Assembly (NCBI GenBank): GCA_965218695.1
Contig: CBDCLR010000006.1
Location: 1-14,463, forward strand
From: Nitrosopumilus sp.
GTDB taxonomy: Archaea; Thermoproteota; Nitrososphaeria; Nitrososphaerales; Nitrosopumilaceae
Reading direction: 5' to 3'
DNA length: 14,463 nt
Shown: one piece after another, positions 1-14,239 of the stretch
Layout: each line of letters opens with the position of its first letter
Position numbering within the stretch: the first letter of the stretch is position 1
Translations under genes and position numbers: made by a program
Notes under the pieces: generated by a model
The model's input: the letters and a program-made list of their open reading frames with translations, nothing else
What the model was told of the DNA's origin: nothing
The model's database searches: none

Positions 1-820
1 AGTAGGTTATATCCGGCCTGTCGGATGTGGTGATGCCGGAGACGGTAAGGGTTATGGTGTCGTCCGAACCGGCGGGATCAGAGTTTGCCGACACCGTTCC
101 GACAGATAGGGTGAATCCTTCGCCGTTTGTGGTTGTGACGTCTATGTTCTCGCTGTACGTCAGGACTATCTCGGTAAGGGAGGTCACGGCAGCCGCGGTG
201 ATTGTTGGCGGGGTGGTGTCCGGCAGCGGGGTGGTGCCGGTAAAGGTCTGGTCTGCTGCCGGGTTTGATGCGCCGTCTGTCACGGAGCCATCAGACTCGG
301 TATAAGTCACGTTTGGAGCATCGGATGCGGTGATGCCTGAGACGGTAAGGGTTATGGTGTCGTCCGAACCCGCGGGATCAGTATTTGCCGTCACCGTTCC
401 GGTGGAAAGGGTAAATCCTTCGCCGTTTGTGGTTGTGACGCCTATGTCCTCGCTGTACGTCAGGAGTATCTCGGTAAGGGAGGTCACGGCAGCTGCGGTG
501 ATTGTTGGTGGAATAGTATCCGGCAGCGGGGTGGTGCCGGTAAAGGTCTGGCTCGCTGCAGGGTTTGATGCGGTGTCTGCCACGGTGCCATCAGACTCGG
601 TGTAAGTCACGTCTGGAGCATCGGACGCGGTGATGCCGGAGACGGTAAGTGTTATGGTGCTGTCCGAATTGTCGGGATCAGTATTTGCCGTCACCGTTCC
701 GGTGGAAAGGGTAAATCCTTCGCCGTTTGTGGTTGTGACGCCTATGTCCTCGCTGTACGTCAGGAGTATCTCGGTAAGGGAGGTCACGGCAGCTGCGGTG
801 ATTGTTGGTGGAATGGTGTC
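1..820 (-). repeat. Tandem type A domains A16, A17 and partial A18, exact 300-nt period
   Basis: Markers at 41, 341 and 641; 373-514 is identical to 673-814. Confidence 0.9.
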
Positions 821-3800
821 TGATGGAATGTTGTTTGTGACCAACATTGCCGCAAAGCTGGCAAGCGAGTTTGGCTGCGGATGCAAAGTAAATGGCTCTG
901 ATAGCGCGTACTCTAATACGTTATCGTTACCAGTATCCACAACAAACATCTTGTATCCGTCATTAGAGAAGGCCAGGCCTGTCGGGGAGTTGTCTTGTGA
1001 ATCTATTTGGAAGGAGCCGACAAAGGTGACATCCGATACGCCGGTGACATTGGATATGTCAAAGGGGGTGGCTAGCGCGTACTCGTTTACGTCTCTACTG
1101 GTAAAACCTACGACAAACATCTTTGTTCCGTCAGCAGAGAAGGTCAGGCCTGTCGGGGCTTCGACTTCTGATGCCACTGAGAAAGAGTCGACGATGGAGG
1201 AAGTGGATACGTCAAAGGGGGTGGTCAGCGTGTACTCGTGTACGGCATCGGGAGAGAAACCTGCGACAAACATCTTTGTTCCGTCAGCAGAGAAGGCCAC
1301 GTCTCGGAGAATTGTGTCTTGTAAGGATACTGAGAAGGAGCTGTCATAGGTGGCAGTGGATACGTCAAAGGGGGTGGCTAGCGCGTACTCGTATATGTCA
1401 TTGTCAAAATTACCTGCGACAAACATCTTTGTTCCGTCAGCAGAGAAGGCCAGGCCTGTCGGGGATTGGTCCTGTGAGAGTACTGAGAAAGAGCCGGCAA
1501 AGGTGACATTGGATACGTCAAAGGGGGTGGTTAGCGCGTACTCTAATACGTCAGTGCTGGAAAAACCTACGACAAACATCTTTGTTCCGTCAGCAGAGAA
1601 GGCCAGGCCTGTCGGGGAGTTGTCTTGTGAATCTACCGAGAAGGAGCCGACAAAGGACGGAGGAGCAGCAGCAGGAATGTCATCTATGCTACCCGTGGTT
1701 TTGTCGTATGCCAGATTGATGACATCATTACTATCAAGCACACTGCTGAGGGCAAGGGTGACCGTGTCGGCAGCGGCCGTGATTCCAGTCACGGTAGGAT
1801 TTGTGGATATGGTGCCGGATAGCGCAAAGTCTCCGGGTGCCGCACCGTTTATTGTGACGTCTTCGGACAGTACGACGTCAATTGTCGATGTGCTGGAAGT
1901 TTCGATGGAAGATACCGTTGGCGGCGCGTCATCTACTGTACGGTCAAAGGTCTGGTTTGCTGCCGGGTTTGATGCGGTGTCTGCCACGGTGCCAAGTGAA
2001 TCGGTGTAGGTTATATCTGGAGTATCGGATGTGTTGGTGATGCCGGAGACGGTAAGGGTTATGGTGTTGTCCGAACCGGCGGGATCAGAGTTTGCCGTCA
2101 CTTCCCCGACGGAGAGGGTGAATCCTTCGCCGTTTGTGGTTGTGACGTCTATGTCCTCGCTGTACGTCAGGACTATCTCGGTAAGGAAGGTCACGGCAGC
2201 CGCGGTGATTGTTGGTGGAATGGTGTCCGGCAGCGGGGTGGTGCCGGTAAAGGTCTGGTCTGCTGCAGGGTTTGATGCGGTGTCTGCCACGGTGCCATCA
2301 GACTCGGTGTAAGTCACGTTTGGAGTATCAGATGTGGTAATACCGGAGACGGTAAGGGTTATGGTGCTGTCCGAATTGTCGGGATCAGTATTTGCCGACA
2401 CCGTTCCGGTGGAAAGGGTAAATCCTTCGCCGTTTGTGGTTGTGACGTCTATGTTCTCGCTGTACGTCAGGAGTATCTCGGTAAGGGAGGTCACGGCAGC
2501 TGCGGTGATTGTTGGTGGAATAGTATCCGGCAGCGGGGTGGTGCCGGCAAAGGTCTGGTCTGCTGCCGGGTTTGATGCGGTGTCTGCCACGGTGCCATCA
2601 GACTCGGTGTAAGTCACGTTTGGAGCATCGGATGTGGTAATACCGGAGACGGTAAGGGTTATGGTGCTGTCCGAATTGTCGGGATCAGTATTTGCCGTCA
2701 CCGTTCCGGTGGAAAGGGTGAATCCTTCGCCGTTTGTGGTTGTGACGTCTATGTTCTCGCTGTACGTCAGGACTATCTCGGTAAGGGAGGTCACGGCAGC
2801 TGCGGTGATCTCTGGTGGAATAGTATCCGGCAGCGGGGTGGTGCCGGTAAAGGTCTGGCTCGCTGCCGGGTTTGATGCGCTGCCTGTCACGGAGCCATCA
2901 GATTCGGTGTAAGTCACGTTTGGAGCATCGGATGCGGTGATGCCTGAGACGGTAAGGGTTATGGTGCTGTCCGAATTGTCGGGATCAGTATTTGCCGACA
3001 CTGTTCCGACAGATAGGGTGAATCCTTCGCCGTTTGTGGTTGTGACGTCTATGTTCTCGCTGTACGTCAGGACTATCTCGGTAAGGGAGATCACGGTAGC
3101 CGCGGTGATTGTTGGCGGGGTGGTGTCTGATGGAATGTTGTTTGTGACTGACATTGCCGCAAAGCTGGCAAGGGAGTTTGGCTGTTGGAATAACGTAAAT
3201 GGTTCAGATAGCGCGTACTGGTGTACGTTCTCGCCGAAATTACCCAAGACAAATATCCTCGTTCCGTCAGCAGAGAGGGCCAGGCCTTGCGGGAATGTGT
3301 CTTGTGATGCCACTGAGAAAGAGTCGACAAAGGCGGCAGTGGACACGTCAAAGGCGGGGGTTAGCGCGTACCCGTATACGGCATCGTTAGAACTACCCAC
3401 TACAAACATCCTAGTTCCGTCAGCAGAGAAGGCCAGGCCTCGCGGGGATATGTCTTGTGATGACACGGAGAAAGAGTCGACAAAGGTGACATCCGATGTG
3501 CCGGCGACATTCGATACGTCAAAGGGGGCGGATAGCGTGTACTCGTTTATGTCATCGCCAGCACCGCCCAAGACAAACATCTTTGTTCCGTCACCAGAGA
3601 AGGCCATGTCTAGCGGGAGTATGTCTTGTGATGCCACTGAGAAAGAGTCGACAAAGGAGGCAGTGGACACGTCAAAGGCGGCGGATAGTGTGTACTCGTT
3701 TATGTTATTGTCGAAACTACCCACAACAAACATCTTTGTTCCGTCAGCAGAGAAGGCCAGGCCTGTCGGGAGTGTGTCTTGTGAACCTACTGAGAAAGAG

Positions 3801-6800
3801 TCGACAAAGGAGGCAGTGGATACGTCAAAGGCGGCGGTTAGTGTGTACTGGTGTACGGCATCGTTATCTCTACCACTACCAGTACCCACTACAAACATCC
3901 TTGTTCCGTCATTAGAGAAGGCCAGGCCGGTTGATCCCGAGTCTTGTATACCTACTGGGAAGGAGCCGACAAGGGGCGGAAGAGGGATGTCATCTATGCT
4001 GCCCGTGGCCTTGGTGTATGCCAGGAAGATGGCATCATTGCTGTCAAGCGTATCGTCAAGGGCAAGGGCTACCGCGTTGTTTGCAACAGCGGTGATTCCG
4101 GTCACGGCCGGGTCTGTGGATATGGTGCCGGACAGCGCAAAGTCTTCCGGTGCCGCATCGTTTATTGTGACGTTTTCGGACAGCACGATGTTAATTGTTG
4201 ATGTGCCGGCAGTTGCAACGGAGGACACGGTTGGAGGCGCGTTATCGGTTGTGCCGGTAAAGGTCTGGCTTGCTGCCGAGGTTGATGCACTGCTGCCTGT
4301 CACGGTGCCGGATTCCGCAGAGTAGGTTATGTCCGGCCTGTCGGATGTTGTGATGCCGGAGACGGTAAGTGTTATGGTGTTGTCCGAATTGTCGGGATCA
4401 GAGTTTGCCGACACCGTTCCTCCGACAGATAGGGTGAATCCTTCGCCGTTAGTGGTTGTGACGTCTATGTTCTCGCTGTACGTTAGGACTATCTCGGTAA
4501 GGGAGGTCACGGCAGCCGCGGTGATTGTTGGGGCAACGGTGTCTAGCGGTACAATGTTGTTTTTGACCGACATTGCCGCAAAGCTGGCAAGCGAGTTTGG
4601 CTGCGGGAATAGCGTAAATGGCTCTGACAGCGCGTACTCGTATACGGCATTGCTGTCATTTTCCAGAACAAACATCCTTGTTCCGTCATCAGAGAAGGCC
4701 AGGGCTGTCAGGGTGAATCTCTGTGATGACACGGAGAAGGAGTCGACAAAGGAGGCAGTGGACACGTCAAATGGGGAGGTTAATGCGTACTTGATTACGG
4801 CATCGTTGTCAGAAGACGAAACAAACATCTTGGTTCCGTCATCAGAGAAAGCCAGACCCTGCGGGGATGGTGCGTGTGATGCCACTGAGAAAGAGTCGAC
4901 AAAGGTGACAGTGGATACGTCAAAGGGGCCATTTAGTGTGTACTCGTTTACGTAACTGTCACCGCCGAAAATATCCAGAACAAACATCTTTGTTCCGTCG
5001 TTGGAGAAGGCCAGACTCCGCGGGGATATATCCGTTTGAGATACTTGGAAAGAGTCGACAAAGGAGGAAGTGGATACGTCAAATGGGGCGGTTAGCGTGT
5101 ACTCGTGTACGTCATTGCTGACAAGACCTATGACAAACATCTTTGTTCCGTTAGCAGAGAAGGCCAGGTCTGCCGGGAATGTGTCTTGTGAGTCTACTGA
5201 GAAAGAGTCGACAAAGGAGGCAGTGGATATGTCAAATGGGGCGGATAGCGCGTACTCGTTTATGTCAATGCCGGCAAAACCTACGACAAACATCTTTGTT
5301 CCGTCATCAGAGAAGGCCAGGCCTGTCGGAGTGGTGTCTTGTGAAGCCACCGAGAAAGAGCCGACAAAGGACGGAGGAGCAAGAATGTCATCTATGCTGC
5401 CCGTGGCTTTGGCGTATGCCAGGCTGATGACATCATTACTGTCAAGCGTATCATTGAGGGTAAGGGTGACCGTGTCGGCAAGGACCGTGATTCCGGTCAC
5501 GGCCTGGTCTGTGGATATGGTGCCGGACAGCGCAAAGTCTTCCGGTGCCACAGAGTTGACTGTAACATTTTCGGACAGCACGACGTCAATTGCCGATCTG
5601 CCGGCAGTTGCAATGGAGGACACGGTTGGCGGCGCGTCATCAGTTGTGCCGGCAAAGGTCTGGTCTGCTGCCGGGTTTGATGCGGTGTCTGCCACGGTGC
5701 CAAGTGGAGCGATGTAGGTTATAGCTGGAGTATCGGATGTGCTGGTGATGCCGGAGACGGTAAGGGTTATGGTGTCGTCCGAACCGGTGGGATCAGAGTT
5801 TGCCGTCACTTCCCCGACGGAGAGGGTGAATCCTTCGCCGTCTATCGTTGTGACGTTTACATTCTCATCATACGTCAGGACTATCTCGGTAAGGGAGGTC
5901 ACGGCAGCCGCGGTGATTGTTGGTGGAACGGTGTCCGGCAGCGGGGTGATGCCGGTAAAGGTCTGGCTCGCTGCAGGGTTTGATGCGCTGTCTGTCACGG
6001 AGCCATCAGACTCGGTGTAAATCACGTTTGGAGTATCGGATGCGGTGATGCCGGAGACGGTAAGGGTTATGGTGTTGCTCGAATTGTCGGGATCAGTATT
6101 TGCCGACACCGTTCCGACGGAGAGAGTGAATCCTTCGCCGTCCGTGGTTGTGACGTCAACGTTCTCGCTGTACGTCAGGACTATCTTGGTAAGGGAGGTC
6201 ACGGCAGCCGCGGTGATTGTTGGTGGAACGGTATCTATTGGGGGATCAATGTCATCGGGTGGTGGTGTCGGTGCAATGTTGTTTGCAACTGACATTGCCG
6301 CAAAGCTGGCAAGGGAATTTGGCTGTGGGAATAGCGTAAATGGTTCTGATAGCGCGTACTCGTTTACGGCAGTTTTACTATCACCTAGAACAAACATCCT
6401 TATTCCGTCAGCAGAGAAGGCCAGGCCCTTTGGGGAGTTGTCCTGTGCTGCCACGGAGAAAGAGTCGACAAAGGTGACATTGGATATGTCAAATGGGGCG
6501 GATAGCGCGTACTCGTTTACGTCATCGCCGGAAGTACCTACAACAAACATCCTTGTTCCGTCATCAGAGAAGGCCAGATCCCATGGAGTTATTTCTTGTG
6601 ATGCCACTGGGAAGGAGCTGGTAAAGGTGGCAGTGGGCACGTCAAAGGCGGTGGTTAATGCGTACTGGTATACGGCATTGGCAGCATTACCCACTACAAA
6701 CATCTTTGTTCCGTTAGCAGAGAAGGCCAGGCCTGTGGGGATTTCGTCTTGTGAAGCCACTGAGAAAGAGCTGGTAAAGTTGACATTGGATATGTCAAAG

Positions 6801-9800
6801 GGGGCGGATAGCGCGTACTGGAATACGGCATTAGCAACATTACCCACTACAAACATCTTTGTTCCGTCATTGGAGAAGGCCAGGCCTCGCGGATTCAAAT
6901 TCTGTAAATGTAGTGAGAAGTCGTTGACAAAGTCGGCAGTAGATACGTCAAAGGGGGCGGATAGTACGTACTGGTATACGGCATTGCCAATATCACCCAC
7001 TACAAACATCCTGGTACCGTCATTGGAGAAGGCCAAACCTCGTGGGAATTCGTCTTGTGATGCCACTGGGAAAGAGTCGGTAAAGGACGGAGGAACAAGA
7101 ATGTCATCTATGCTGCCTATTGTTTTGTCGTATGCCAGGCTGATGACATCATCATGAGCAAGCGTGTCGTTAAGGGCAAGGGTGACCGTGTCGGCAACGG
7201 CGGTGATTCCAGTCACGGCCAGGTCTGCGGATATGGTGCCGGACAGCACAAAGTCTTCGGGTGCCGTACCGTTTATTGTGACGTCTTCGGACAGTACGAT
7301 GTCAATTGCATTTGTCGATGTGCTATTAGTTGCAATGGAAGATACCGTTGGAGGCGCGTCATCGGTTGTGCCGGTAAAGGTCTGGTTTGCTGCCGGGGTT
7401 GATGCACTGCTGTCTGTCACGGTGCCGGATTCCGCAGAGTAGGTTATATTCGGCCTGTCGGATGTTGTGATGCCGGAGACGGTAAGGGTTATGGTGTCGT
7501 CCGAACCGGCGGGATCGGTGTTTGCCGACACCGTTCCTCCGTCAGAGAGGGTGAATCCTGTGCCGTCCGTGGCGTTGACGTCTATGTTCTCGCTGTACGT
7601 CAGGGTTATGCTGGTAGCCGAGGTCACGGCAGCTGCGGTGATTTCCGGCGGTAGTGGCGGTGTCGATGCAACGTTGTTTGTGACCGACATTGCCGCAAAG
7701 GATGCAAGGGAATTTGGCTGCGGAAGCAGGTCAAACGGCTTTGATAATGCGTACTGGTGTACTTTATCGGAACTAGTGCCTACGACAAACATCCTGGATC
7801 CGTCATCGGAGAAGGCCACGGATTGCGGGAGTAAATCTTGTGATGCCACTCGGAAGGAGCCGGCAGGGGCGGCAGTGGACACGTCAAAGGGAACGGACAG
7901 TGCGTACTGGTATACGACTCTGCTGGCAGGATCTACAACAAACATCCTTGTTCCGTCATCAGAGAATGTCAGGCCTGATGGGGAACTGTTTTCTGATGGT
8001 AATGAGAAAGAGCCGGCAACGCCTGCAAAAGATATGTCAAAGGTGGCGGTTAGCGAGTACGCGTATACGGCATCGTTACGGTTGCCTGTAACAAACATCT
8101 TTCTTCCGTCATTGGAGAGGGCCACGTCTCGCGGATCTGAATCTTGTGGTGCCACTGGGAAGGAGCTGTCAAAGGAGGCAGTGGACACGTCAAATGGGGC
8201 GGCCAGCACGTACTGGTGTACGGCATCGTTATCAGAATCCACAACATACATCCCGGTTCCGTTAGCAGAGAAGGTCAGGCCCTGCGGTCTGAATGTAATG
8301 CCTTCCGATGTCACCACTGCGAAACTGTCGATAAATACGGCATTGGATGATATGTCAAAGGGGACAGCCAGCGAGTACTCGTTTACGTTATTGTTGTTAC
8401 CACCTACGACAAACATCTTTGTTCCGTCAGCGGAGAAGGCCAGGCCTGATGGCACAGTATCCTGATCTGATACTGGGAAAGAGTCCACAAATAGCGGAGG
8501 AGGAAGAGGAGCAGAGACGTCATCTATGCTACCCGTGGTTCTGGTGTATGCCAGGCTGATGACATCATCATGATCAAGGTTATCGTCAAGGGAAAGGGTG
8601 ACCGTGTCGGCAACGGCCGAGATTGCAGTCACGGTCGGATTCGTGGATATGGTGCCGGACAGCACAAAGTCTTCAGGTGCCGCCAAGTTGTATGCGATAT
8701 TTTCGGACAGCGTGACGTCAATTGTCGTTGTGCCGGCAGTATTAATGGAGGATACGACCGGAGGCGCACCGTCAACCGTATCGACAAAGGTCTGGGTTCG
8801 TGCCGGGTTTAATGTATTGTCTGTCACGATACCGGGCGGAGAGTTGAAAATTATATTTGGAGTATCGGATGTGCTGGTGATGCCGGAGACCGTAAGGGTT
8901 ATGGTGTTGTCCGTACCACCGGCGGAAACGGTGTTTGCCGTCACCGTTCCTCCTTCGGTGGAGAGGGCAAATCCCGTGCCGTCCGTGTAGTCGACGATTA
9001 TATCCTCGCTGTACGTCAGGACTATCTCGGTAAGGGAGGTCACAACAGCTGCGGTGATCTCCGGTGGAACGGTGTCCGGCAGCGTGGTGGTGCCGTCAAA
9101 GGTCTGGTCTGCTGCCGGGTTTGATGCGGTATCTGCCACGGTGTTGCCAGCTGATGCGGAGTAAATTATATCCGGAGGAGTACCGTCAGATGATGCCGGG
9201 ATGCCGGAGACGACAAGCGTTATGGTGTCGCTTGAACCTCCGGGATCGGTGTTTGCCGTCACTAACCCGACAGAGAGGGAGAATCCCGTGCCGTCTGTGT
9301 AGTCGACGTCTATGTCCTCGCTGTACGTCAGGACTATCTGGGTATCCGAGATCACAACAGCTGCGGTGATTGTTGGTGGAATAGTATCCGGCAGCGCCGT
9401 GGTACCAGTAAAGGTCTGGCTCGCTGCAGGGTTTGATGCGCCGTCTGTCACGGAGCCATCAGACTCGGTGTAAGTCACGTTTGGAGCATCGGATGCGGTG
9501 ATGTCGGAGACGGTAAGGGTTATGGTGTCGTCCGAACCTGCGGGATCAGAGTTTGCCGTCACCGTTCCGACAGATAGGGTAAATCCTTGGCCGTCCGTCG
9601 TTGTGACGTTAACGTTCTCGCTGTACGTCAGGACTATCTCGGTAAGGGAGGTCACGGCAGCCGCGGTGATTGTTGGTGGAACGGTGTCCGGCAGCGGGGT
9701 GGTGCCAGTAAAGGTCTGGCTTGCTGCCGGGTTTGATGCGCTGTCTGTCACGGTGCCGTCAGACTCGGTGTAAGTCACGTTTGGAGTATCGGACGCGGTG

Positions 9801-12800
9801 ATGCCGGAGACGGTAAGGGTTATGGTGTTGCCCGAACCGGCGGGATCAGAGTTTGCCGTCACTTCCCCGACGGAGAGGGTGAATCCTTCGCCGTTTGCGG
9901 CGTTGATGTCAACGTTCTCGCTGTACGTCAGGACTATCTCGGTAAGGGAGGTCACGGCAGCTGCGGTGATTTCCGGCGGGGTCGTGTCTGGTGGAATGTT
10001 GTTTGTAACCGGATCTGCCGCAAAGCTTGCAAGCGAGTTTGGCTGTGGGAATAGCGTAAATGGCTTTGATAGTGTGTACTCGTTTATGTCATCATTATCA
10101 TTGCCTACGACAAACATCCTAGTTCCATCGCCAGAGAAGGCCAGGCCTCGCGGATTTTCGTCTTCTGATGCCACTGAGAAAGAGCTGACAGGGGCGGCAG
10201 TGGATACGTCAAAGGGGGCGGACAGCGCGTACTCGTTTACGTCATCGCCAATAAGACCTACGACAAACATCCTAGTTCCGTCGCCAGAGAAGGCCAGGCC
10301 CGATGGGAACGTGTCTTGTGAAGCCACTGAGAAAGAGCTGTCAAAGGTGGCAGTAGATATGTCAAAGGGGACAATCAGTACGTACTCGTTTACTTTACCG
10401 CTAATAGTACCTAGGACAAACATCTTTTTTCCGTCGTTGGAGAAGGCCAGGCCTGATGGGAACCTCTCTTGTGAAGCCACTGAGATGGAGTTGGCAAGGG
10501 TGGCATCGGATATGTCAAATGGGGCGGATAGCGTGTACTCGTTTACCTTACCGTTAGAATCACCTACGACAAACATCCTAGTTCCGTCACCAGAGAAGGC
10601 CAGGCGTGATGGGGACGTGTCTTGTGAGGATACTGAGAAAGAGCCGGCAAAGACGGCATTGGATATGTCAAATGGGGCGGATAGCGCGTACTCGTTTACG
10701 TCATCTCCACCAAGATCTAGAACAAACATCTTTGTTCCGTTATTGGAGAAGGCCAGGTCTGATGTATTCTCTCCTTGTAAAGCCACTGAGAGGGAGTTGG
10801 TAAAGGACGTGAGAGCAAGAATGTCATCTATGCTGCCCGTGTCTTTGGCGTATGTCAGATTGATGTCATCATTACTATCAAGCGTATCACTGAGGGCAAG
10901 GGTGACCGTGTCGGCAGCGGCGGCCGTGATTCCAGTCACGGTCGGGTTTGTGGATATGGTGCCGGACAGCGCAAAGTCTTCGGGTGCCGCAGAGTTGACT
11001 GTGACGTCTTCGGACAGCACGACGTCAATTGTTGATGCACTGGAAATTTCGATAGAAGATACGGTTGGCGGCGCGTCATCTACTGTGCGGTCAAAGGTCT
11101 GGTCTTTTGCGGCATTTGAGGCGCCGTCTACCACGGTGCCATCAGATTCGATATAAGTCACATCCGGAGTATCGGATGTGTTGGTAATGCCGGAGACCGT
11201 AAGGGTTATGGTGTTGCCCGAACCTGCGGGATCGGTGTTTGCCGTCACGTCTCCGTCAGAGAGGGTGAATCCTGCGCCGTCCATGGCGTCGACGTCAACG
11301 TTCTCGCTGTACGTCAGGACTATGCTGGTAGCCGAGGTTACAGAGGATGCGGTAATTGTTGGGGCAACGGTATCTGGTGGAATGTTGTTTGTAACCGGAT
11401 CTGCCGCAAAGCTGGCAAGCGAGTTTGGCTGTGGTAACAAGTTAAATGGTTTGGGCAGCACGTACTCGTTTATGTCATCGTTAAAATCACCCAGGACAAA
11501 CATCCTTGTTCCGTCGCCAGAGAAGGCCAGGCCTGATGGGGATCTGTCTTGTGAGGCCACTGGGAAAGAGTTGGCAAGGGTGACATTGGATACGTCAAAG
11601 GGGGCGGCCAGTGCGTACTCGTGTACGGCATCGTTAAAATTACCTACAACGAACATCCTTGTTCCGTCGCCAGAGAAGGCCAGGTCTCGTGGGAATGTGT
11701 CTTCTGATGCCACTGAGAAAGAGCCGACAAAGGAGGAAGTCGATACGTCAAAGGGAGCGGTTAGCGCGTACTCGTTTACGGCATCGCCAAGATCACCTAC
11801 AACAAACATCCTTGTTCCGTTGTTGGAGAAGGCCAGGCCTGATAGGAATACGTCTTGTGAATCCACTGAGAAAGAGTCCACAAAGATGACATTGGATATG
11901 TCAAAGGGGGTGGACAGTATGTACTCGTTTACGTCATTGCCTTCATCGCCTAGGACAAACATCCTTGTTCCGTCGCCAGAGAAGGCCAGACCTTGTGGGA
12001 GTGTGTCTTGTGATACCACTGAGAAAGTGTTGACAAGGGTGACATTGGATACGTCAAAGGGGGCGGATAGCGCGTACTCGTTTACGGCATCTCTATCAAG
12101 ATCTAGAACAAACATCTTTTTTCCGTCAGCGGAGAAGGCCAGGCCTGATAGATCCGTTCCTTGTGGAGCCACTGAGAAGGAGCTGGCAAAGAATGAAAGA
12201 AGAATGTCATCTATGCTGCCCGTGTTTCTGTCGTATTCCAGGTTGATGTCATCATTACTATCAAGCGTATCACTGAGGGCAAGGATAACCGTGTCGGCAA
12301 GGATGGGGGTGATTCCAGTCACGGTCGGGTTTGTGGATATGGTGCCGGACAGCGCAAAGTCTCCGGGTGCTACAGAGTTTACTGTGACGTCTTCGGACAG
12401 CACGACGTTAATTGTCGATGTGCTGGAAGTTTCGATAGAAGATACGGTTGGCGGCGCGTCATCCACTGTGCGGTCAAAGGTCTGGTCTTTTGCGGCATTT
12501 GAGACGCCGTCTACCACGGTGCCATCAGATTCGATATAAGTCACATCCGGAGTATCGGATGTGTTGGTAATGCCGGAGACCGTAAGGGTTATGGTGTTGC
12601 CCGAACCTGCGGGATCGGTGTTTGCCGTCACGTCTCCGTCAGAGAGGGTGAATCCTGCGCCGTCCATGGCGTCGACGTCAACGTTCTCGCTGTACGTCAG
12701 GACTATGCTGGTAGCCGAGGTTACAGAGGATGCGGTAATTGTTGGGGCAACGGTATCTGGTGGAATGTTGTTTGTAACCGGATCTGCCGCAAAGCTGGCA

Positions 12801-14239
12801 AGCGAGTTTGGTTGTGTGGATAACGTAAATGGTTCGGGCAGTGTGTACTCGTTTATGTCAACATCATCATCACCTGAAACAAACATCTTTGTTCCGTCGT
12901 TGGAGAAGGTTAGGCTTGATGGGGATGAGTCTTGCGAAACTACTGGGAAAGAGCTGACAAAGGTGATATTGGATATGTCAAATGGGGCAATCAGTACGTA
13001 CTCGTTTACTTTACCGTCAAAAATATCTAGAACAAACATCTTTGTTCCGTCGTTGGAGAAGGTTAGGCCTCGTGTGAATGGATCCTCGAAGGCCACTGAG
13101 AAAGAGTTGACAAAGGAGGCAGTTGATACGGTAAAGGGGGCTGTTAATGTGTACTCGCTTACAACATAGTCACTAGCATCTATGACAAACATCTTCATTC
13201 CGTCGCCAGAGAAGGCCAGGCCTGACGGAGCTGTTACCTGCGATGCCACTGAGAAAGAGCCGGCAGAGGTGGCAGAAGACAAGTCAAAGGGGGCGGACAG
13301 CGCGTACTCGTTTACGTTTTGACTATCATCATCTAGAACAAACATCCTGGTACCGTCACCAGAGAAGGCCAGGTCTGACGGAGCTGTTACCTGCGATGCC
13401 ACTGAGAAAGAGCCGGCAGAGGTGGCAGAAGACAAGTCAAAGGGGGCGGACAGCGCGTACTCGTTTACGTCATTGTCATTATCACTTAGAACAAACATCC
13501 TTGTTCCGTCGCCAGAGAAGGCCAGACCTCGTGGGAATATGTCTTCTGAATACACTGAGAAAGAGTCGACAAAGGATGCAGAAGCAGCAGAGATGTCATC
13601 TATGCTGCCCGTGTTTCTGGTGTATGTCAGGTTAATGTCATCATCATGAGCAAGTGTGCCGCTAAGGGTGAGGATAAGTGTGTTTGTAGGTGTGGCGGCA
13701 GTAGCAGTAGCAGGGATGATTCCAGTTACGACCGGGTCTGTGGATATGGTGCCAGACAGCACAAAGTCTCTGGGTGCCACAGAGCTGACTGTAACGTTTT
13801 CGGACAGCATGACGTGAATTGTTGATGTGCCGACAGTACCGATGGAGGACACGATTGGCGGCGCGTTATCGGTTGTGCCGGTAAAGGTCTGGCTTTCTGC
13901 TGCATTTGAGGCGCCGTCTGCCACAGTGCCAGATGCCGCAGCATAAATCACATCTGGCGTATCAGAGGTGAAGGGGATGCCGGAAACCGTAAGGGTTATG
14001 GTGTTGTCCGAACCAGCGGGATCGGTGTTTGCCGTCACTATTCCCCCGTCAGAGAGGGAGAATCCTGCGCCGTCTATCGTTGTGACGTTTACATTCTCAT
14101 CATACGTCAGGACTATCTCGGTAGCCGAGGTTACAGAAGCTGCGATAATTGTCGGGTGCTCCGCCGCATGTACCGGAACAATGGACAAAGAGGCCAACAT
14201 CAGCGTGGAAATTAAAATAACAAAGGAAATTCTCTCCAT
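2..14239 (-). CDS. Giant secreted/cell-surface repeat protein (putative adhesin) with Ig-like (SwmB-like) repeats and eight beta-propeller cassettes; 3'-truncated by the window edge, at least 4,746 aa
   Basis: Manual translation from ATG 14239 gives MERISFVILISTLMLASLSIVPVHAAEHPTIIAASVTSATEIVLTYDENVNV..., and the same frame at the left edge reads ...TITLTVSGITTSDRPDITY. An in-frame TAA lies upstream at 14267-14269. All 21 repeat-like + strand shadow ORFs start at positions divisible by 3, so there is no frameshift. The ORF track has no minus-strand ORF in this frame, which implies no internal stop. Confidence 0.95.
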   Translation of the reverse strand, partial: MERISFVILISTLMLASLSIVPVHAAEHPTIIAASVTSATEIVLTYDENVNVTTIDGAGFSLSDGGIVTANTDPAGSDNTITLTVSGIPFTSDTPDVIYAAASGTVADGASNAAESQTFTGTTDNAPPIVSSIGTVGTSTIHVMLSENVTVSSVAPRDFVLSGTISTDPVVTGIIPATATAATPTNTLILTLSGTLAHDDDINLTYTRNTGSIDDISAASASFVDSFSVYSEDIFPRGLAFSGDGTRMFVLSDNDNDVNEYALSAPFDLSSATSAGSFSVASQVTAPSDLAFSGDGTRMFVLDDDSQNVNEYALSAPFDLSSATSAGSFSVASQVTAPSGLAFSGDGMKMFVIDASDYVVSEYTLTAPFTVSTASFVNSFSVAFEDPFTRGLTFSNDGTKMFVLDIFDGKVNEYVLIAPFDISNITFVSSFPVVSQDSSPSSLTFSNDGTKMFVSGDDDVDINEYTLPEPFTLSTQPNSLASFAADPVTNNIPPDTVAPTITASSVTSATSIVLTYSENVDVDAMDGAGFTLSDGDVTANTDPAGSGNTITLTVSGITNTSDTPDVTYIESDGTVVDGVSNAAKDQTFDRTVDDAPPTVSSIETSSTSTINVVLSEDVTVNSVAPGDFALSGTISTNPTVTGITPILADTVILALSDTLDSNDDINLEYDRNTGSIDDILLSFFASSFSVAPQGTDLSGLAFSADGKKMFVLDLDRDAVNEYALSAPFDVSNVTLVNTFSVVSQDTLPQGLAFSGDGTRMFVLGDEGNDVNEYILSTPFDISNVIFVDSFSVDSQDVFLSGLAFSNNGTRMFVVGDLGDAVNEYALTAPFDVSTSSFVGSFSVASEDTFPRDLAFSGDGTRMFVVGNFNDAVHEYALAAPFDVSNVTLANSFPVASQDRSPSGLAFSGDGTRMFVLGDFNDDINEYVLPKPFNLLPQPNSLASFAADPVTNNIPPDTVAPTITASSVTSATSIVLTYSENVDVDAMDGAGFTLSDGDVTANTDPAGSGNTITLTVSGITNTSDTPDVTYIESDGTVVDGASNAAKDQTFDRTVDDAPPTVSSIEISSASTIDVVLSEDVTVNSAAPEDFALSGTISTNPTVTGITAAAADTVTLALSDTLDSNDDINLTYAKDTGSIDDILALTSFTNSLSVALQGENTSDLAFSNNGTKMFVLDLGGDDVNEYALSAPFDISNAVFAGSFSVSSQDTSPSRLAFSGDGTRMFVVGDSNGKVNEYTLSAPFDISDATLANSISVASQERFPSGLAFSNDGKKMFVLGTISGKVNEYVLIVPFDISTATFDSSFSVASQDTFPSGLAFSGDGTRMFVVGLIGDDVNEYALSAPFDVSTAAPVSSFSVASEDENPRGLAFSGDGTRMFVVGNDNDDINEYTLSKPFTLFPQPNSLASFAADPVTNNIPPDTTPPEITAAAVTSLTEIVLTYSENVDINAANGEGFTLSVGEVTANSDPAGSGNTITLTVSGITASDTPNVTYTESDGTVTDSASNPAASQTFTGTTPLPDTVPPTITAAAVTSLTEIVLTYSENVNVTTTDGQGFTLSVGTVTANSDPAGSDDTITLTVSDITASDAPNVTYTESDGSVTDGASNPAASQTFTGTTALPDTIPPTITAAVVISDTQIVLTYSEDIDVDYTDGTGFSLSVGLVTANTDPGGSSDTITLVVSGIPASSDGTPPDIIYSASAGNTVADTASNPAADQTFDGTTTLPDTVPPEITAAVVTSLTEIVLTYSEDIIVDYTDGTGFALSTEGGTVTANTVSAGGTDNTITLTVSGITSTSDTPNIIFNSPPGIVTDNTLNPARTQTFVDTVDGAPPVVSSINTAGTTTIDVTLSENIAYNLAAPEDFVLSGTISTNPTVTAISAVADTVTLSLDDNLDHDDVISLAYTRTTGSIDDVSAPLPPPLFVDSFPVSDQDTVPSGLAFSADGTKMFVVGGNNNNVNEYSLAVPFDISSNAVFIDSFAVVTSEGITFRPQGLTFSANGTGMYVVDSDNDAVHQYVLAAPFDVSTASFDSSFPVAPQDSDPRDVALSNDGRKMFVTGNRNDAVYAYSLTATFDISFAGVAGSFSLPSENSSPSGLTFSDDGTRMFVVDPASRVVYQYALSVPFDVSTAAPAGSFRVASQDLLPQSVAFSDDGSRMFVVGTSSDKVHQYALSKPFDLLPQPNSLASFAAMSVTNNVASTPPLPPEITAAAVTSATSITLTYSENIDVNATDGTGFTLSDGGTVSANTDPAGSDDTITLTVSGITTSDRPNITYSAESGTVTDSSASTPAANQTFTGTTDDAPPTVSSIATNSTSTNAIDIVLSEDVTINGTAPEDFVLSGTISADLAVTGITAVADTVTLALNDTLAHDDVISLAYDKTIGSIDDILVPPSFTDSFPVASQDEFPRGLAFSNDGTRMFVVGDIGNAVYQYVLSAPFDVSTADFVNDFSLHLQNLNPRGLAFSNDGTKMFVVGNVANAVFQYALSAPFDISNVNFTSSFSVASQDEIPTGLAFSANGTKMFVVGNAANAVYQYALTTAFDVPTATFTSSFPVASQEITPWDLAFSDDGTRMFVVGTSGDDVNEYALSAPFDISNVTFVDSFSVAAQDNSPKGLAFSADGIRMFVLGDSKTAVNEYALSEPFTLFPQPNSLASFAAMSVANNIAPTPPPDDIDPPIDTVPPTITAAAVTSLTKIVLTYSENVDVTTTDGEGFTLSVGTVSANTDPDNSSNTITLTVSGITASDTPNVIYTESDGSVTDSASNPAASQTFTGITPLPDTVPPTITAAAVTSLTEIVLTYDENVNVTTIDGEGFTLSVGEVTANSDPTGSDDTITLTVSGITSTSDTPAITYIAPLGTVADTASNPAADQTFAGTTDDAPPTVSSIATAGRSAIDVVLSENVTVNSVAPEDFALSGTISTDQAVTGITVLADTVTLTLNDTLDSNDVISLAYAKATGSIDDILAPPSFVGSFSVASQDTTPTGLAFSDDGTKMFVVGFAGIDINEYALSAPFDISTASFVDSFSVDSQDTFPADLAFSANGTKMFVIGLVSNDVHEYTLTAPFDVSTSSFVDSFQVSQTDISPRSLAFSNDGTKMFVLDIFGGDSYVNEYTLNGPFDVSTVTFVDSFSVASHAPSPQGLAFSDDGTKMFVSSSDNDAVIKYALTSPFDVSTASFVDSFSVSSQRFTLTALAFSDDGTRMFVLENDSNAVYEYALSEPFTLFPQPNSLASFAAMSVKNNIVPLDTVAPTITAAAVTSLTEIVLTYSENIDVTTTNGEGFTLSVGGTVSANSDPDNSDNTITLTVSGITTSDRPDITYSAESGTVTGSSASTSAASQTFTGTTDNAPPTVSSVATAGTSTINIVLSENVTINDAAPEDFALSGTISTDPAVTGITAVANNAVALALDDTLDSNDAIFLAYTKATGSIDDIPLPPLVGSFPVGIQDSGSTGLAFSNDGTRMFVVGTGSGRDNDAVHQYTLTAAFDVSTASFVDSFSVGSQDTLPTGLAFSADGTKMFVVGSFDNNINEYTLSAAFDVSTASFVDSFSVASQDILPLDMAFSGDGTKMFVLGGAGDDINEYTLSAPFDVSNVAGTSDVTFVDSFSVSSQDISPRGLAFSADGTRMFVVGSSNDAVYGYALTPAFDVSTAAFVDSFSVASQDTFPQGLALSADGTRIFVLGNFGENVHQYALSEPFTLFQQPNSLASFAAMSVTNNIPSDTTPPTITAATVISLTEIVLTYSENIDVTTTNGEGFTLSVGTVSANTDPDNSDSTITLTVSGITASDAPNVTYTESDGSVTGSASNPAASQTFTGTTPLPDTIPPEITAAAVTSLTEIVLTYSENIDVTTTNGEGFTLSTGTVTANTDPDNSDSTITLTVSGITTSDAPNVTYTESDGTVADTASNPAADQTFAGTTPLPDTIPPTITAAAVTSLTEILLTYSENIDVTTTNGEGFTLSTGTVSANTDPDNSDSTITLTVSGITTSDTPNVTYTESDGTVADTASNPAADQTFTGTTPLPDTIPPTITAAAVTFLTEIVLTYSEDIDVTTTNGEGFTLSVGEVTANSDPAGSDNTITLTVSGITNTSDTPDITYTDSLGTVADTASNPAANQTFDRTVDDAPPTVSSIETSSTSTIDVVLSEDVTINGAAPGDFALSGTISTNPTVTGITAAADTVTLALSSVLDSNDVINLAYDKTTGSIDDIPAAAPPSFVGSFSVDSQDNSPTGLAFSADGTKMFVVGFSSTDVLEYALTTPFDVSNVTFAGSFSVLSQDQSPTGLAFSADGTKMFVAGNFDNDIYEYALATPFDVSTATYDSSFSVSLQDTILRDVAFSADGTKMFVAGFSPDAVHEYTLTTPFDVSTSSIVDSFSVASEVEAPTGLTFSADGTKMFVVGFTSRDVNEYALATPFDISNVTGVSDVTFVGSFQIDSQDNSPTGLAFSNDGYKMFVVDTGNDNVLEYALSEPFTLHPQPNSLASFAAMLVTNNIPSDTIPPTITAAAVTSLTEILLTYSEDIGVTTTNGEGFTLSTGTVTANTDPDNSDSTITLTVSGITASDAPDVTYTESDGTVADTASNPAASQTFTGTTPLPDTIPPTITAAAVTSLTEILLTYSEDIGVTTTNGEGFTLSTGTVTANTDPAGSDDTITLTVSGITASDAPNVTYTESDGSVTDGASNPAADQTFTGTTPLPDTTPPTITAAAVTSLTEIVLTYSENIDVTTTNGEGFTLSVGTVSANSDPAGSDDTITLTVSGITTSDRPDITY
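830..1933 (-). repeat. Module 8: type B domain with 5-blade cassette (insert ~875-1678)
   Basis: Five MFV motifs (~1572, 1419, 1266, 1113, 942). Confidence 0.85.
1934..3127 (-). repeat. Tandem array of four highly similar type A domains (A12-A15), exact 300-nt period
   Basis: Markers at 2048, 2348, 2648 and 2948. Confidence 0.9.
3137..4246 (-). repeat. Module 7: type B domain with 5-blade cassette (insert ~3182-3988)
   Basis: Five motifs (~3891, 3726, 3573, 3402, 3249 IFV variant), with 12-nt and 18-nt in-frame loop insertions. Confidence 0.85.
4247..4543 (-). repeat. Type A domain A11
   Basis: Marker at ~4361; RPDITYSAESG variant. Confidence 0.85.
4556..5641 (-). repeat. Module 6: type B domain with 5-blade cassette (insert ~4601-5386)
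   Basis: Five MFV motifs (~5286, 5133, 4980, 4821, 4668). Confidence 0.85.
5642..6235 (-). repeat. Two tandem type A domains (A9-A10)
   Basis: Markers at ~6056 and 5755. Confidence 0.85.
6278..7363 (-). repeat. Module 5: type B domain with 5-blade cassette (insert ~6323-7102)
   Basis: Five MFV motifs (~7002, 6849, 6696, 6543, 6390). Confidence 0.85.
7364..7655 (-). repeat. Type A domain A8
   Basis: Marker at ~7478; RPNITYSAESG variant. Confidence 0.85.
7673..8773 (-). repeat. Module 4: type B domain with divergent 5-blade cassette (insert ~7718-8518)
   Basis: Motifs at ~8409, 8243 (GMYVV variant), 8091, 7938 and 7785. Confidence 0.85.
8774..9988 (-). repeat. Tandem array of four type A domains (A4-A7), ~300-320 nt units
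   Basis: TITLTVSG-type markers at ~9809, 9509, 9209 (variant) and 8888. Confidence 0.85.
9998..11080 (-). repeat. Module 3: type B domain with 5-blade cassette (insert ~10043-10822)
   Basis: Five MFV motifs (~10722, 10569, 10416, 10263, 10110). Confidence 0.85.
11081..11375 (-). repeat. Type A domain A3
   Basis: DTVAPTITASSVTSATSIVLTYSENVDVDAMDGAGFTLSDG... Confidence 0.85.
11384..12463 (-). repeat. Module 2: type B domain with 5-blade cassette (insert ~11429-12205)
   Basis: Five MFV motifs (~12108, 11955, 11802, 11649, 11496) between GSIDD and PQPNSLASF. Confidence 0.85.
12464..12758 (-). repeat. Type A domain A2
   Basis: Nearly identical to A3 at an offset of 1383 nt. Confidence 0.85.
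12767..13870 (-). repeat. Module 1: type B Ig-like domain with inserted 5-blade cassette (insert ~12812-13594)
   Basis: DNAPP...LTYTRNTGSIDD, then five MF(V) motifs at 153-nt spacing (~13491, 13338, 13185, 13032, 12879), then QPNSLASFAADPVTNN. Confidence 0.85.
13871..14161 (-). repeat. Type A Ig-like stalk domain A1
   Basis: PTIIAASVTSATEIVLTYDENV...TDPAGSDNTITLTVSGI...DVIY...GTVADGASNAAESQTFTGTT; the marker TITLTVSG or a close variant occurs 18 times in the window. Confidence 0.85.
14165..14239 (-). other. Sec/SPI-type signal peptide, 25 aa (MERISFVILISTLMLASLSIVPVHA)
   Basis: Short n-region with Arg, a hydrophobic core, then Pro and V-H-A before A-E-H-P, where the first repeat domain begins. 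Confidence 0.85.

Follow-up and report, generated by a model that had tools for sequence, protein, structure and literature searches.

A single contig of a Nitrosopumilus sp. assembly (GenBank GCA_965218695.1, contig CBDCLR010000006.1; 14,463 bases, all of which form the window analysed here) is filled by one gene, whose product joins immunoglobulin (Ig)-like domains and β-propellers into a giant protein. The question it raises is how the two kinds of domain are connected: do the propellers lie in series between finished Ig-like domains, or is each nested inside one? A first-pass annotation of the sequence had placed each propeller in the hairpin before the last strand of a second type of Ig-like domain (B), and had taken the segment NSLASF...V.NN that follows the propeller to be that strand. 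Truncated profile matches, an element-by-element comparison within a structure model, fold matches confined to the propeller, and contacts predicted in trans all support this placement, and on such in silico evidence the nested architecture is very probable. The best explanation of the protein as a whole, to which we give a probability of about 0.82, is a giant secreted surface protein with split B domains and lateral propellers, likely a multivalent adhesin or binding protein.

Gene and domain layout

The contig (G000:C7) is one of nine in a genome of 2.63 Mb that carries an archaeal small-subunit ribosomal RNA (1467.9 bits). A single minus-strand open reading frame (ORF) fills it (2..14239; 4746 residues, 3′-open), and the translation (P0001) is stop-free. 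The domain order is SP-A-B*-A-B*-A-B*-AAAA-B*-A-B*-AA-B*-A-B*-AAAA-B*-AA-(A cut), where SP is a signal-peptide-like segment and B* a B domain with its propeller, so that the stalk has 26 Ig-like domains (17 full and one partial A, eight B). The N-terminus (residues 1-25, 14165..14239) has a hydrophobic core and then VHA-AE, and resembles a signal peptide (MERISFVILISTLMLASLSIVPVHA followed by AE, read from the translation with no predictor). In a Pfam scan of the whole protein SWM_repeat (PF13753) scored 212.9 bits (E 5.3e-64; gathering cut-off 27 bits) over seven stretches; these are A domains, the best covering profile positions 2-84 of 86. SGL (PF08450) scored 107.1 bits summed over the eight modules, with no single stretch passing.

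The protein is cut by the contig end inside an A domain. The full protein is thus longer than 4746 residues, the break in the assembly probably being due to repeats. A search for its continuation with A, B and propeller profiles among the other eight contigs (E ≤ 1e-3) returned nothing beyond a weak match on contig C1 (E 2e-4), and no open-ended ORF on the small contigs resembles a continuation.

Eight modules with the same junctions

Each module consists of the N-terminal part of a B domain (B N-part), a propeller and a short tail. Motif searches found GSIDD 8 times, Q.NSLASFAA..V.NN 8 times and 40 blade motifs, five in each module; the A domains contribute 17 ends (QTF...) and 18 LTY motifs. 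The first-pass annotation had the array run from 830 to 13870, and this span fits, module 1 starting at 13870 and the 16-residue tail motif of module 8 ending near 830; the A domains likewise end as it described, e.g. in ...NVTYTESDGTVADTASNPAADQTFAGTT. Its account of the B domains also held: in 8/8 modules they stop at GSIDD, are interrupted by 258-268 residues of blades, and resume with QPNSLASFAA..V.NN. From GSIDD to QPNSL the inserts of modules 1 to 8 measure 260, 258, 259, 266, 259, 261, 268 and 267 residues.

GSIDD and QPNSLASFAA are invariant in all eight copies. Since the copies are paralogues (58-73% identical), their shared junctions do not count as separate observations. The junction pattern is also kept in nested modules of other genomes of the family that are only 30-34% identical (loci L091, L104 and L109 of genome G059, and locus L073). 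There it takes the form ...Y....G.I.D, propeller, (P)N.L..F....V.N, as in EPNTLAGFERQQIINE, ESNQLPSFTADEVVDE, LPNPLGSFALLQVQNS and TANVMGDFDAMQVPN, and on sequence grounds this distant agreement weighs more than that among the eight copies.

The tail is the best conserved piece of the module: mean pairwise identity is 89.5% there, 70.7% in the B N-part and 56.6% in the propeller. The identity matrices of B N-part and propeller are correlated (Spearman 0.58, over pairs that are not independent), which suggests duplication of the entire nested unit. Modules 1-3 have identical 16-residue tails (within 12758-12814, 11375-11431 and 9989-10045) and an almost identical linker after them, but propellers that are only 59-66% identical; either strong constraint at the junction or its gene conversion is indicated. 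Module 5 has a longer, Pro/Asp-rich linker (6236-6325; APTPPPDDIDPPIDTVPP), and similar PPPDDIDP linkers occur in a related record (L015, L016).

The missing strand of the B domain

A hidden Markov model (HMM) was built from the 17 full A domains (97 positions). It matches all eight B N-parts, in support of their homology to A, each from position 2-4 to only position 80-90 (independent E-values, 3.6e-7 to 6.8e-4), so by this profile the B N-parts lack the last strand in 8/8 cases. The Big_5 match of the B N-part likewise stops early, at profile position 79 of 105 (19.9 bits, below the cut-off of 23.6). A B N-part profile gave 0 matches among Protein Data Bank sequences at E ≤ 10. The check proposed in the first-pass annotation, a hmmscan of the rejoined B domain for a full-length SWM_repeat match, proved uninformative because the SWM_repeat model (86 positions) ends before the last strand, near GSIDD, and the B N-part alone already reaches position 85; even A domains match it over their first ~76 residues only.

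The structure of module 6 with the next A domain (467 residues) was predicted with AlphaFold2 (AF2) from an alignment of 87 rows, which beyond the protein's own copies held 26 more nested modules and 53 propeller-only relatives. The model has a mean predicted local distance difference test score (pLDDT) of 92.4, a predicted template modelling score (pTM) of 0.77 and no segment under 50; block means are 90 for residues 81-90, 89 for 341-350 and 96 for 351-360. The A domain within the model (4241..4537, residues 3235-3333; A-HMM) serves as an internal control. Eight of its nine secondary-structure elements match the B N-part (5387..5641, residues 2867-2951; A-HMM 2-85) one to one. The ninth, the QTF strand, has no partner there; a seven-residue strand, FAAMSVK (model residues 354-360), appears only after the propeller, in the tail (4544..4603, residues 3213-3232).

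A second predictor, ESMFold2, was given the B N-part (88 residues, 34-row alignment) and, as a separate chain, the tail with the next A domain (123 residues). The pair scored 0.61, and the best of three controls 0.00; three runs agreed in 100% of contacts, with partner pLDDT at least 82. In calibration, the score mark that the pair passed had been attained by 58 of 80 solved complexes and by 2 of 110 mismatched pairs, counts that hold only roughly because our own alignments were used. Only partner residues 3-22, i.e. the tail, make contacts, and they touch B N-part residues 2-7, 9-15, 66-78 and 82-87 (examples are Y76-F354, I10/A11/T12-V359/K360/N361, and I83 of GSIDD with L351). Along strand F the pairs are antiparallel (residues 72-78 against 15 to 9), and along strand A they are parallel (10-12 against 14-17), so that in the prediction the docked tail sits where a G strand belongs.

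Fold and autonomy of the propeller

By AF2 and DSSP the insert of module 6 (4604..5386, residues 2952-3212) has five blades of three strands plus an outer D strand, and the strand just after GSIDD (model residues 91-97) is the fifth D strand. Judged from these strand counts the N-terminal strand would close the ring, and the two ends of the propeller would therefore lie together, as an inserted domain requires. In a VIA-align search against 48,161 chains, of which the best 50 matches were listed, all 50 of these are propellers, spanning model residues 84-103 to 336-350, and none of them reaches the strand at 354-360. The best, 3qqz_A (Z 24.2; root-mean-square deviation (rmsd) 2.5; 226 of 243 residues aligned), covers model residues 88-338. 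Sequence identity to the chains listed ranges from 4 to 18%, and for the enzymes among them from 4 to 14%. No Ig-fold match bridging B N-part and tail is among the VIA-align and Foldseek matches listed, which are filled by propellers and thus uninformative either way on this point.

Homologues were scanned for whole propellers in 151 proteins (the 150 best representatives and the window's own P0001). In 142 of them 475 whole propellers were found, 409 of which end at module-HMM positions 335-346, before the tail. Elsewhere the same propeller immediately follows a signal peptide, forms part of a long array of blades, or comes in series after a complete Ig domain. Because most homologues end before the tail and occur in these other contexts, the propeller is a unit in its own right, to which the tail does not belong.

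Within each propeller the five blades closely repeat one another, and the same structural positions are conserved from blade to blade. Over the blade columns, entropy peaks in the D-A and B-C loops, and the strands and the FS.DG turn have the lowest values. SGL matches a single propeller weakly, at 27.1 bits (cut-off 26.3), with only profile positions 135-164 of 246 matched and no stretch passing alone. By phmmer the only solved sequence relative of the blades is 1l0q_A (E 7.8e-9, 38.9 bits; query 118-195 against chain 114-180).

Weighing the alternatives

Were the modules beads on a string, the B N-part would be a complete domain, the propeller would follow it in series, and QPNSLASF...V.NN would be a linker or the start of the next domain. 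Such an order does occur in relatives, where the same propeller lies behind complete Ig domains (...AVRDASGNLIVGTFD, propeller, ...YPITV in L086, L058 and P0006; ...LADDASAVLATTTVTASNG, propeller in L050); SWM_repeat reaches 85/86 within the B N-part, which by Pfam boundaries is a nearly full SWM_repeat; and the tail has no sequence similarity to the last A strand above controls. Those in-series relatives, however, carry D..GN and a strand before the propeller, and the B domains are without these, just as all eight B N-parts are without A-HMM positions ~81-97. The post-propeller segment is modelled as a seven-residue strand in a block of pLDDT 96 rather than as coil, is the most conserved part of the module, and docks in trans between strands F and A of the B N-part. 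A serial arrangement of these eight modules is on balance very improbable. Equally improbable is that the tail forms an extra outer (D-type) strand on blade 5, which would leave B a truncated sandwich. The tail loosely resembles the SFVDSFSV inter-blade strands, as PF(D/T)xxxxx-S(F/L)xxSF, and blade 5 has no D strand of its own following it; but the D-type strand that precedes blade 1 already makes five D strands for five blades. Moreover, all 50 VIA-align matches listed end at or before model residue 350 (most start at 84-95), most homologous propellers end before the tail, and the tail binds the B N-part in trans with no propeller present.

A third alternative keeps the architecture and changes the function, to a scaffold of the cell envelope or matrix, similar to an S-layer accessory, or to an array of enzymes whose active sites lie in the propellers. 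The sole solved sequence relative, 1l0q_A, is a Methanosarcina surface-layer YVTN propeller, the fold neighbours among the matches listed include enzymes (glutaminyl cyclases, Z 20-21.6; GH43, Z ~18-20; SMP30, Z 17.1), and there is a weak SGL match (27.1 bits against 26.3). Enzyme propellers usually have blade-specific catalytic residues, whereas the blades here are near-repeats with the same conserved positions throughout; identity to the enzyme chains listed is 4-14%, and a fibre with projecting heads is the layout described for adhesins. A scaffold or enzyme array is possible, if unlikely.

Several results weigh against the preferred reading, that of propellers nested in split B domains and displayed by a surface protein. 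SWM_repeat matches the B N-part alone over profile positions 22-85 of 86, at 26.0 bits against a cut-off of 27. When the B N-part was joined to its real tail and scored with the A-HMM, the join did no better than its controls: over the eight modules, 32-75 of 100 joins with random insert 20-mers equalled or exceeded it, as did 54-91 of 100 joins with shuffled tails, so the tail is not recognisably A-like in sequence. An AF2 model of an A-B*-A unit from the eight paralogue rows only was unusable (pLDDT 48.1, pTM 0.24). In the later model the pairing of residues 354-360 with the B sandwich in cis is deduced, not seen in coordinates, and the trans pass may stem partly from a general readiness of an open β-sandwich to accept a strand. 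Finally, the assembly does not include the C-terminus, nor therefore any anchor that it may carry.

Proposed architecture and function

In the nested arrangement the backbone would be a chain of ~100-residue Ig-like β-sandwich domains, 18 of type A (SWM_repeat type) and eight of type B. Each B domain would form eight of its nine elements and stop at GSIDD, where the chain would leave the sandwich to build a complete five-bladed propeller with four strands per blade. The first strand after GSIDD would close the fifth blade (Velcro closure) and so bring the propeller ends together. The chain would then return as (Q)PNSLASFAA..V.NN, the missing last (G) strand of B, antiparallel to strand F and parallel to strand A, before entering the next A domain. 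The stalk would thus be continuous, with each propeller a side branch held by two adjacent strands.

From Ig topology, the propeller should be attached at the end of B that faces the preceding domain. We infer that the heads point sideways, because the last-strand hairpin lies at the chain-entry end, which that preceding domain occupies. Both connections enter on the side of the C-D loop, and the top face, which carries the variable D-A and B-C loops, should for that reason look outwards from the stalk.

Such a protein would be a multivalent fibrillar adhesin or binding protein, a reading suggested by the signal-like N-terminus, the 26-domain stalk, the projecting heads, the variability of their loops and the parallel with RTX adhesins. 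The heads, being more diverged than the stalk, may differ in ligand.

Relatives and distribution

The propeller is found in 10,446 representative proteins at E ≤ 1e-3 and in 3,250 at E ≤ 1e-30. The titles of the loci name Nitrosopumilus, Cenarchaeum, Pelagibacteraceae, Patescibacteria, Bacteroidota and others, the closest being ‘Nitrosopumilus sp.’. In the family its occurrence is patchy, with matches in 12 of 200 genomes sampled (E ≤ 1e-20).

The nested form is rare. By HMM count it occurs in four of the 151 proteins: P0001 (eight modules), P0002 (10), and P0008 and P0012 (three each). Sorting of contexts by regular expressions agrees on these four of 151, but it is crude, leaving 236 of 475 propellers as ‘other’, including one module of the window. 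Further nested modules, 30 in number, lie in loci of one ‘Nitrosopumilus sp.’ record and in L073, and others in G059. One ‘Nitrosopumilus sp.’ chromosome record (L010-L020) has nested modules in at least six separate regions (near 71-95, 188-204, 909-917, 1011-1026, 1487-1499 and 1580-1587 kb), and therefore holds several such giant genes.

Nested and in-series arrangements, as read from sequence, coexist in Nitrosopumilaceae. The in-series context runs as a complete Ig-like domain ending ...AVRD.sGN.ivGTFD, a propeller, ...YPITV and the next domain (L086 and L099 of G006, L058, L031/L032 and L050; P0006, P0024, P0009 and P0036). In a further context a signal peptide is followed by ...SISYSSP.DL, an N-terminal propeller and ...E(T/S).ANDGS(I/V).GS...L.GETF; these proteins (P0016, P0020, P0023, P0027, P0047, P0049, P0051, P0056 and P0071) look bacterial.

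The homologue P0002 is full-length (5191 residues). Its C-terminal ~250 residues comprise an acidic segment (EPEPEPE), nine consecutive Gly, a Cys-containing domain of ~190 residues and poly-Asp/Ser, with no obvious transmembrane helix by eye. Searched against the genome of the window, the C-terminal 215 residues matched nothing convincingly (best E 0.03).

A scenario that we hold tentatively, at somewhat less than even odds, is that split-domain display of heads evolved independently in Archaea: in a lineage of Nitrosopumilaceae an autonomous, widely shared five-bladed propeller would have moved from an in-series position into the last hairpin of an Ig-like stalk domain, and the nested unit would have been amplified 8-10-fold. 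The product would be a bottle-brush with heads all along the shaft and divergent binding faces, a multivalent and multi-specific attachment organ of a kind that is not known to have been described in archaea.

Domain coordinates and overlapping frames

All domains lie on the minus strand and are given here in order from the N-terminus, with residue numbers; modules were delimited by motifs and A domains by the A-HMM, the extent of its match being given for each B N-part. Behind the signal-peptide-like segment comes an A domain (13865..14161, residues 27-125; A-HMM positions 2-97, also Pfam SWM_repeat). Module 1 follows, with its B N-part ending in GSIDD (13595..13870, 124-215; A-HMM 4-86 only), the five-bladed propeller insert (12815..13594, 216-475) and the tail, i.e. 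the putative last B strand and linker (12758..12814, 476-494). An A domain (12458..12751, 497-594) leads to module 2, made up of B N-part (12206..12463, 593-678; 2-80), propeller (11432..12205, 679-936) and tail (11375..11431, 937-955), and another (11075..11368, 958-1055) to module 3, with B N-part at 10823..11080 (1054-1139; 2-80), propeller at 10046..10822 (1140-1398) and tail at 9989..10045 (1399-1417).

Four tandem A domains (8768..9982, residues 1420-1824) separate this from module 4 (B N-part, 8519..8773, 1823-1907, A-HMM 2-81; propeller, 7721..8518, 1908-2173; tail, 7661..7720, 2174-2193). After a single A domain (7358..7654, 2196-2294) comes module 5 (B N-part, 7103..7363, 2293-2379, A-HMM 2-90; propeller, 6326..7102, 2380-2638), whose tail and longer linker occupy residues 2639-2668. 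Two A domains (5636..6229, 2671-2868) precede module 6, the modelled copy, whose coordinates and those of the A domain behind it are given above. The next unit is module 7 (B N-part, 3989..4246, 3332-3417, A-HMM 2-80; propeller, 3185..3988, 3418-3685; tail, 3128..3184, 3686-3704). Four A domains (1928..3121, 3707-4104) then lead to module 8 (B N-part, 1679..1933, 4103-4187, A-HMM 2-81; propeller, 878..1678, 4188-4454; tail, 821..877, 4455-4473). The protein as assembled ends with two A domains and a third cut by the contig end (2..814, 4476-4746; last match 2-71 only).

The plus strand of the window has 16 ORFs of 101-462 residues between 630 and 14297, all of which overlap the giant gene and are taken to be its shadow frames. 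GC skew on the plus strand is positive throughout (0.14-0.28).

Comparison with known systems

Giant, repetitive, secreted proteins with SWM_repeat domains are a known family, whose name comes from SwmB, a giant protein on the cell surface of marine Synechococcus that serves motility. The A domains here match it; the Pfam model lacks the last strand, and the nested propeller falls outside the family definition. The Methanosarcina mazei surface-layer protein of 1l0q, the top Foldseek row, is also an archaeal surface protein that combines a propeller with Ig-like (PKD) domains. According to the entry title, its YVTN propeller and PKD domains stand in tandem rather than nested; that propeller is seven-bladed, and the sequence match covers only ~1.5 blades. 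The best fold matches listed include the C-terminal domain of YjiK (3qqz) and the bacterial glutaminyl cyclases 3mbr and 3nok (Z 24.2, 21.6 and 20.0; 215-226 residues, rmsd 2.5-2.9). These chains of 232-243 residues are covered almost entirely, which fits the count of five blades. Identity is 11-14%, the matched domains are free-standing, and function cannot be transferred. In integrin β, too, a binding domain sits within a loop of a stalk sandwich, the βI domain being inserted in the Ig-like hybrid domain; this classic example differs in being a single insertion, eukaryotic and of another inserted fold.

The first-pass annotation knew of no described adhesin with this repeated nested design, which is too strong, since RTX adhesins have split domains with several heads. 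In two reports (PMC12077191; bioRxiv 10.1101/2025.09.30.679566), ligand-binding domains of RTX adhesins project from ‘split’ Ig-like domains, the stated purpose being to project the head away from the fibre axis, and one Acinetobacter protein, A. baumannii Ab3a, has six carbohydrate-binding modules. Split-domain examples include AhLap of Aeromonas hydrophila, FrhA of Vibrio cholerae and Ab3a (PMC12077191; bioRxiv 10.1101/2025.09.30.679566; PMC10865825). The shared plan is a fibre of Ig-like extenders in which a ligand-binding head, its N- and C-termini next to each other, emerges from an Ig-like domain that is completed afterwards. In silico, the protein of the window likewise has a ligand-binding-type head projecting from a split Ig-like domain.

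The differences are several. The host is an archaeon rather than a Gram-negative bacterium with an outer membrane and a type 1 secretion system (T1SS), and where a retention module would stand, the N-terminus has a Sec-signal-like segment followed directly by an A domain. Among the six Pfam families found in the 4746 residues, none is an RTX or T1SS element, the C-terminus lying outside the assembly, and no nonapeptide repeats were seen by eye in the C-terminus of P0002. The extenders are SWM_repeat/Big_5-like and not BIg, and the insertion comes before the last single strand. The eight heads (10 in P0002) are spread along the whole stalk, whereas those of RTX adhesins cluster near the distal end. 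On the models, the protein would work like an RTX adhesin without being one.

Propeller heads on split domains were not found in the literature: the texts of PMC12077191 and bioRxiv 10.1101/2025.09.30.679566 are without the word ‘propeller’ in connection with split domains, and their supplements might list more head types. No paper on YVTN in Thaumarchaeota was found, and, judged by the titles listed, the literature on giant Nitrosopumilus propeller proteins and on propeller insertions in archaeal Ig-like domains does not describe this protein; in PMC6697440, on sponge Thaumarchaeota, ‘propeller’ occurs in the reference list only. What is already known is thus the split-domain principle and its repetition in one protein, and what is new is the archaeal host, the propeller heads, and the display of 8-10 of them along the stalk.

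Significance

The unit of B N-part, propeller and tail would give the true domain borders for expression constructs. The junctions also offer a cue for annotation, since an Ig-like repeat that stops at ...G.I.D, with N.L..F...V.N following ~260 residues later, brackets a candidate binding head. Few modules are more common than this propeller in the giant proteins of marine archaea, SAR11, Patescibacteria and Bacteroidota. Should the models hold, the protein is a clean archaeal example of the split-domain rule that is used to spot ligand-binding domains in RTX adhesins. The split domain would then be a general solution, reached convergently by fibrillar surface proteins, rather than a trait peculiar to one bacterial family.

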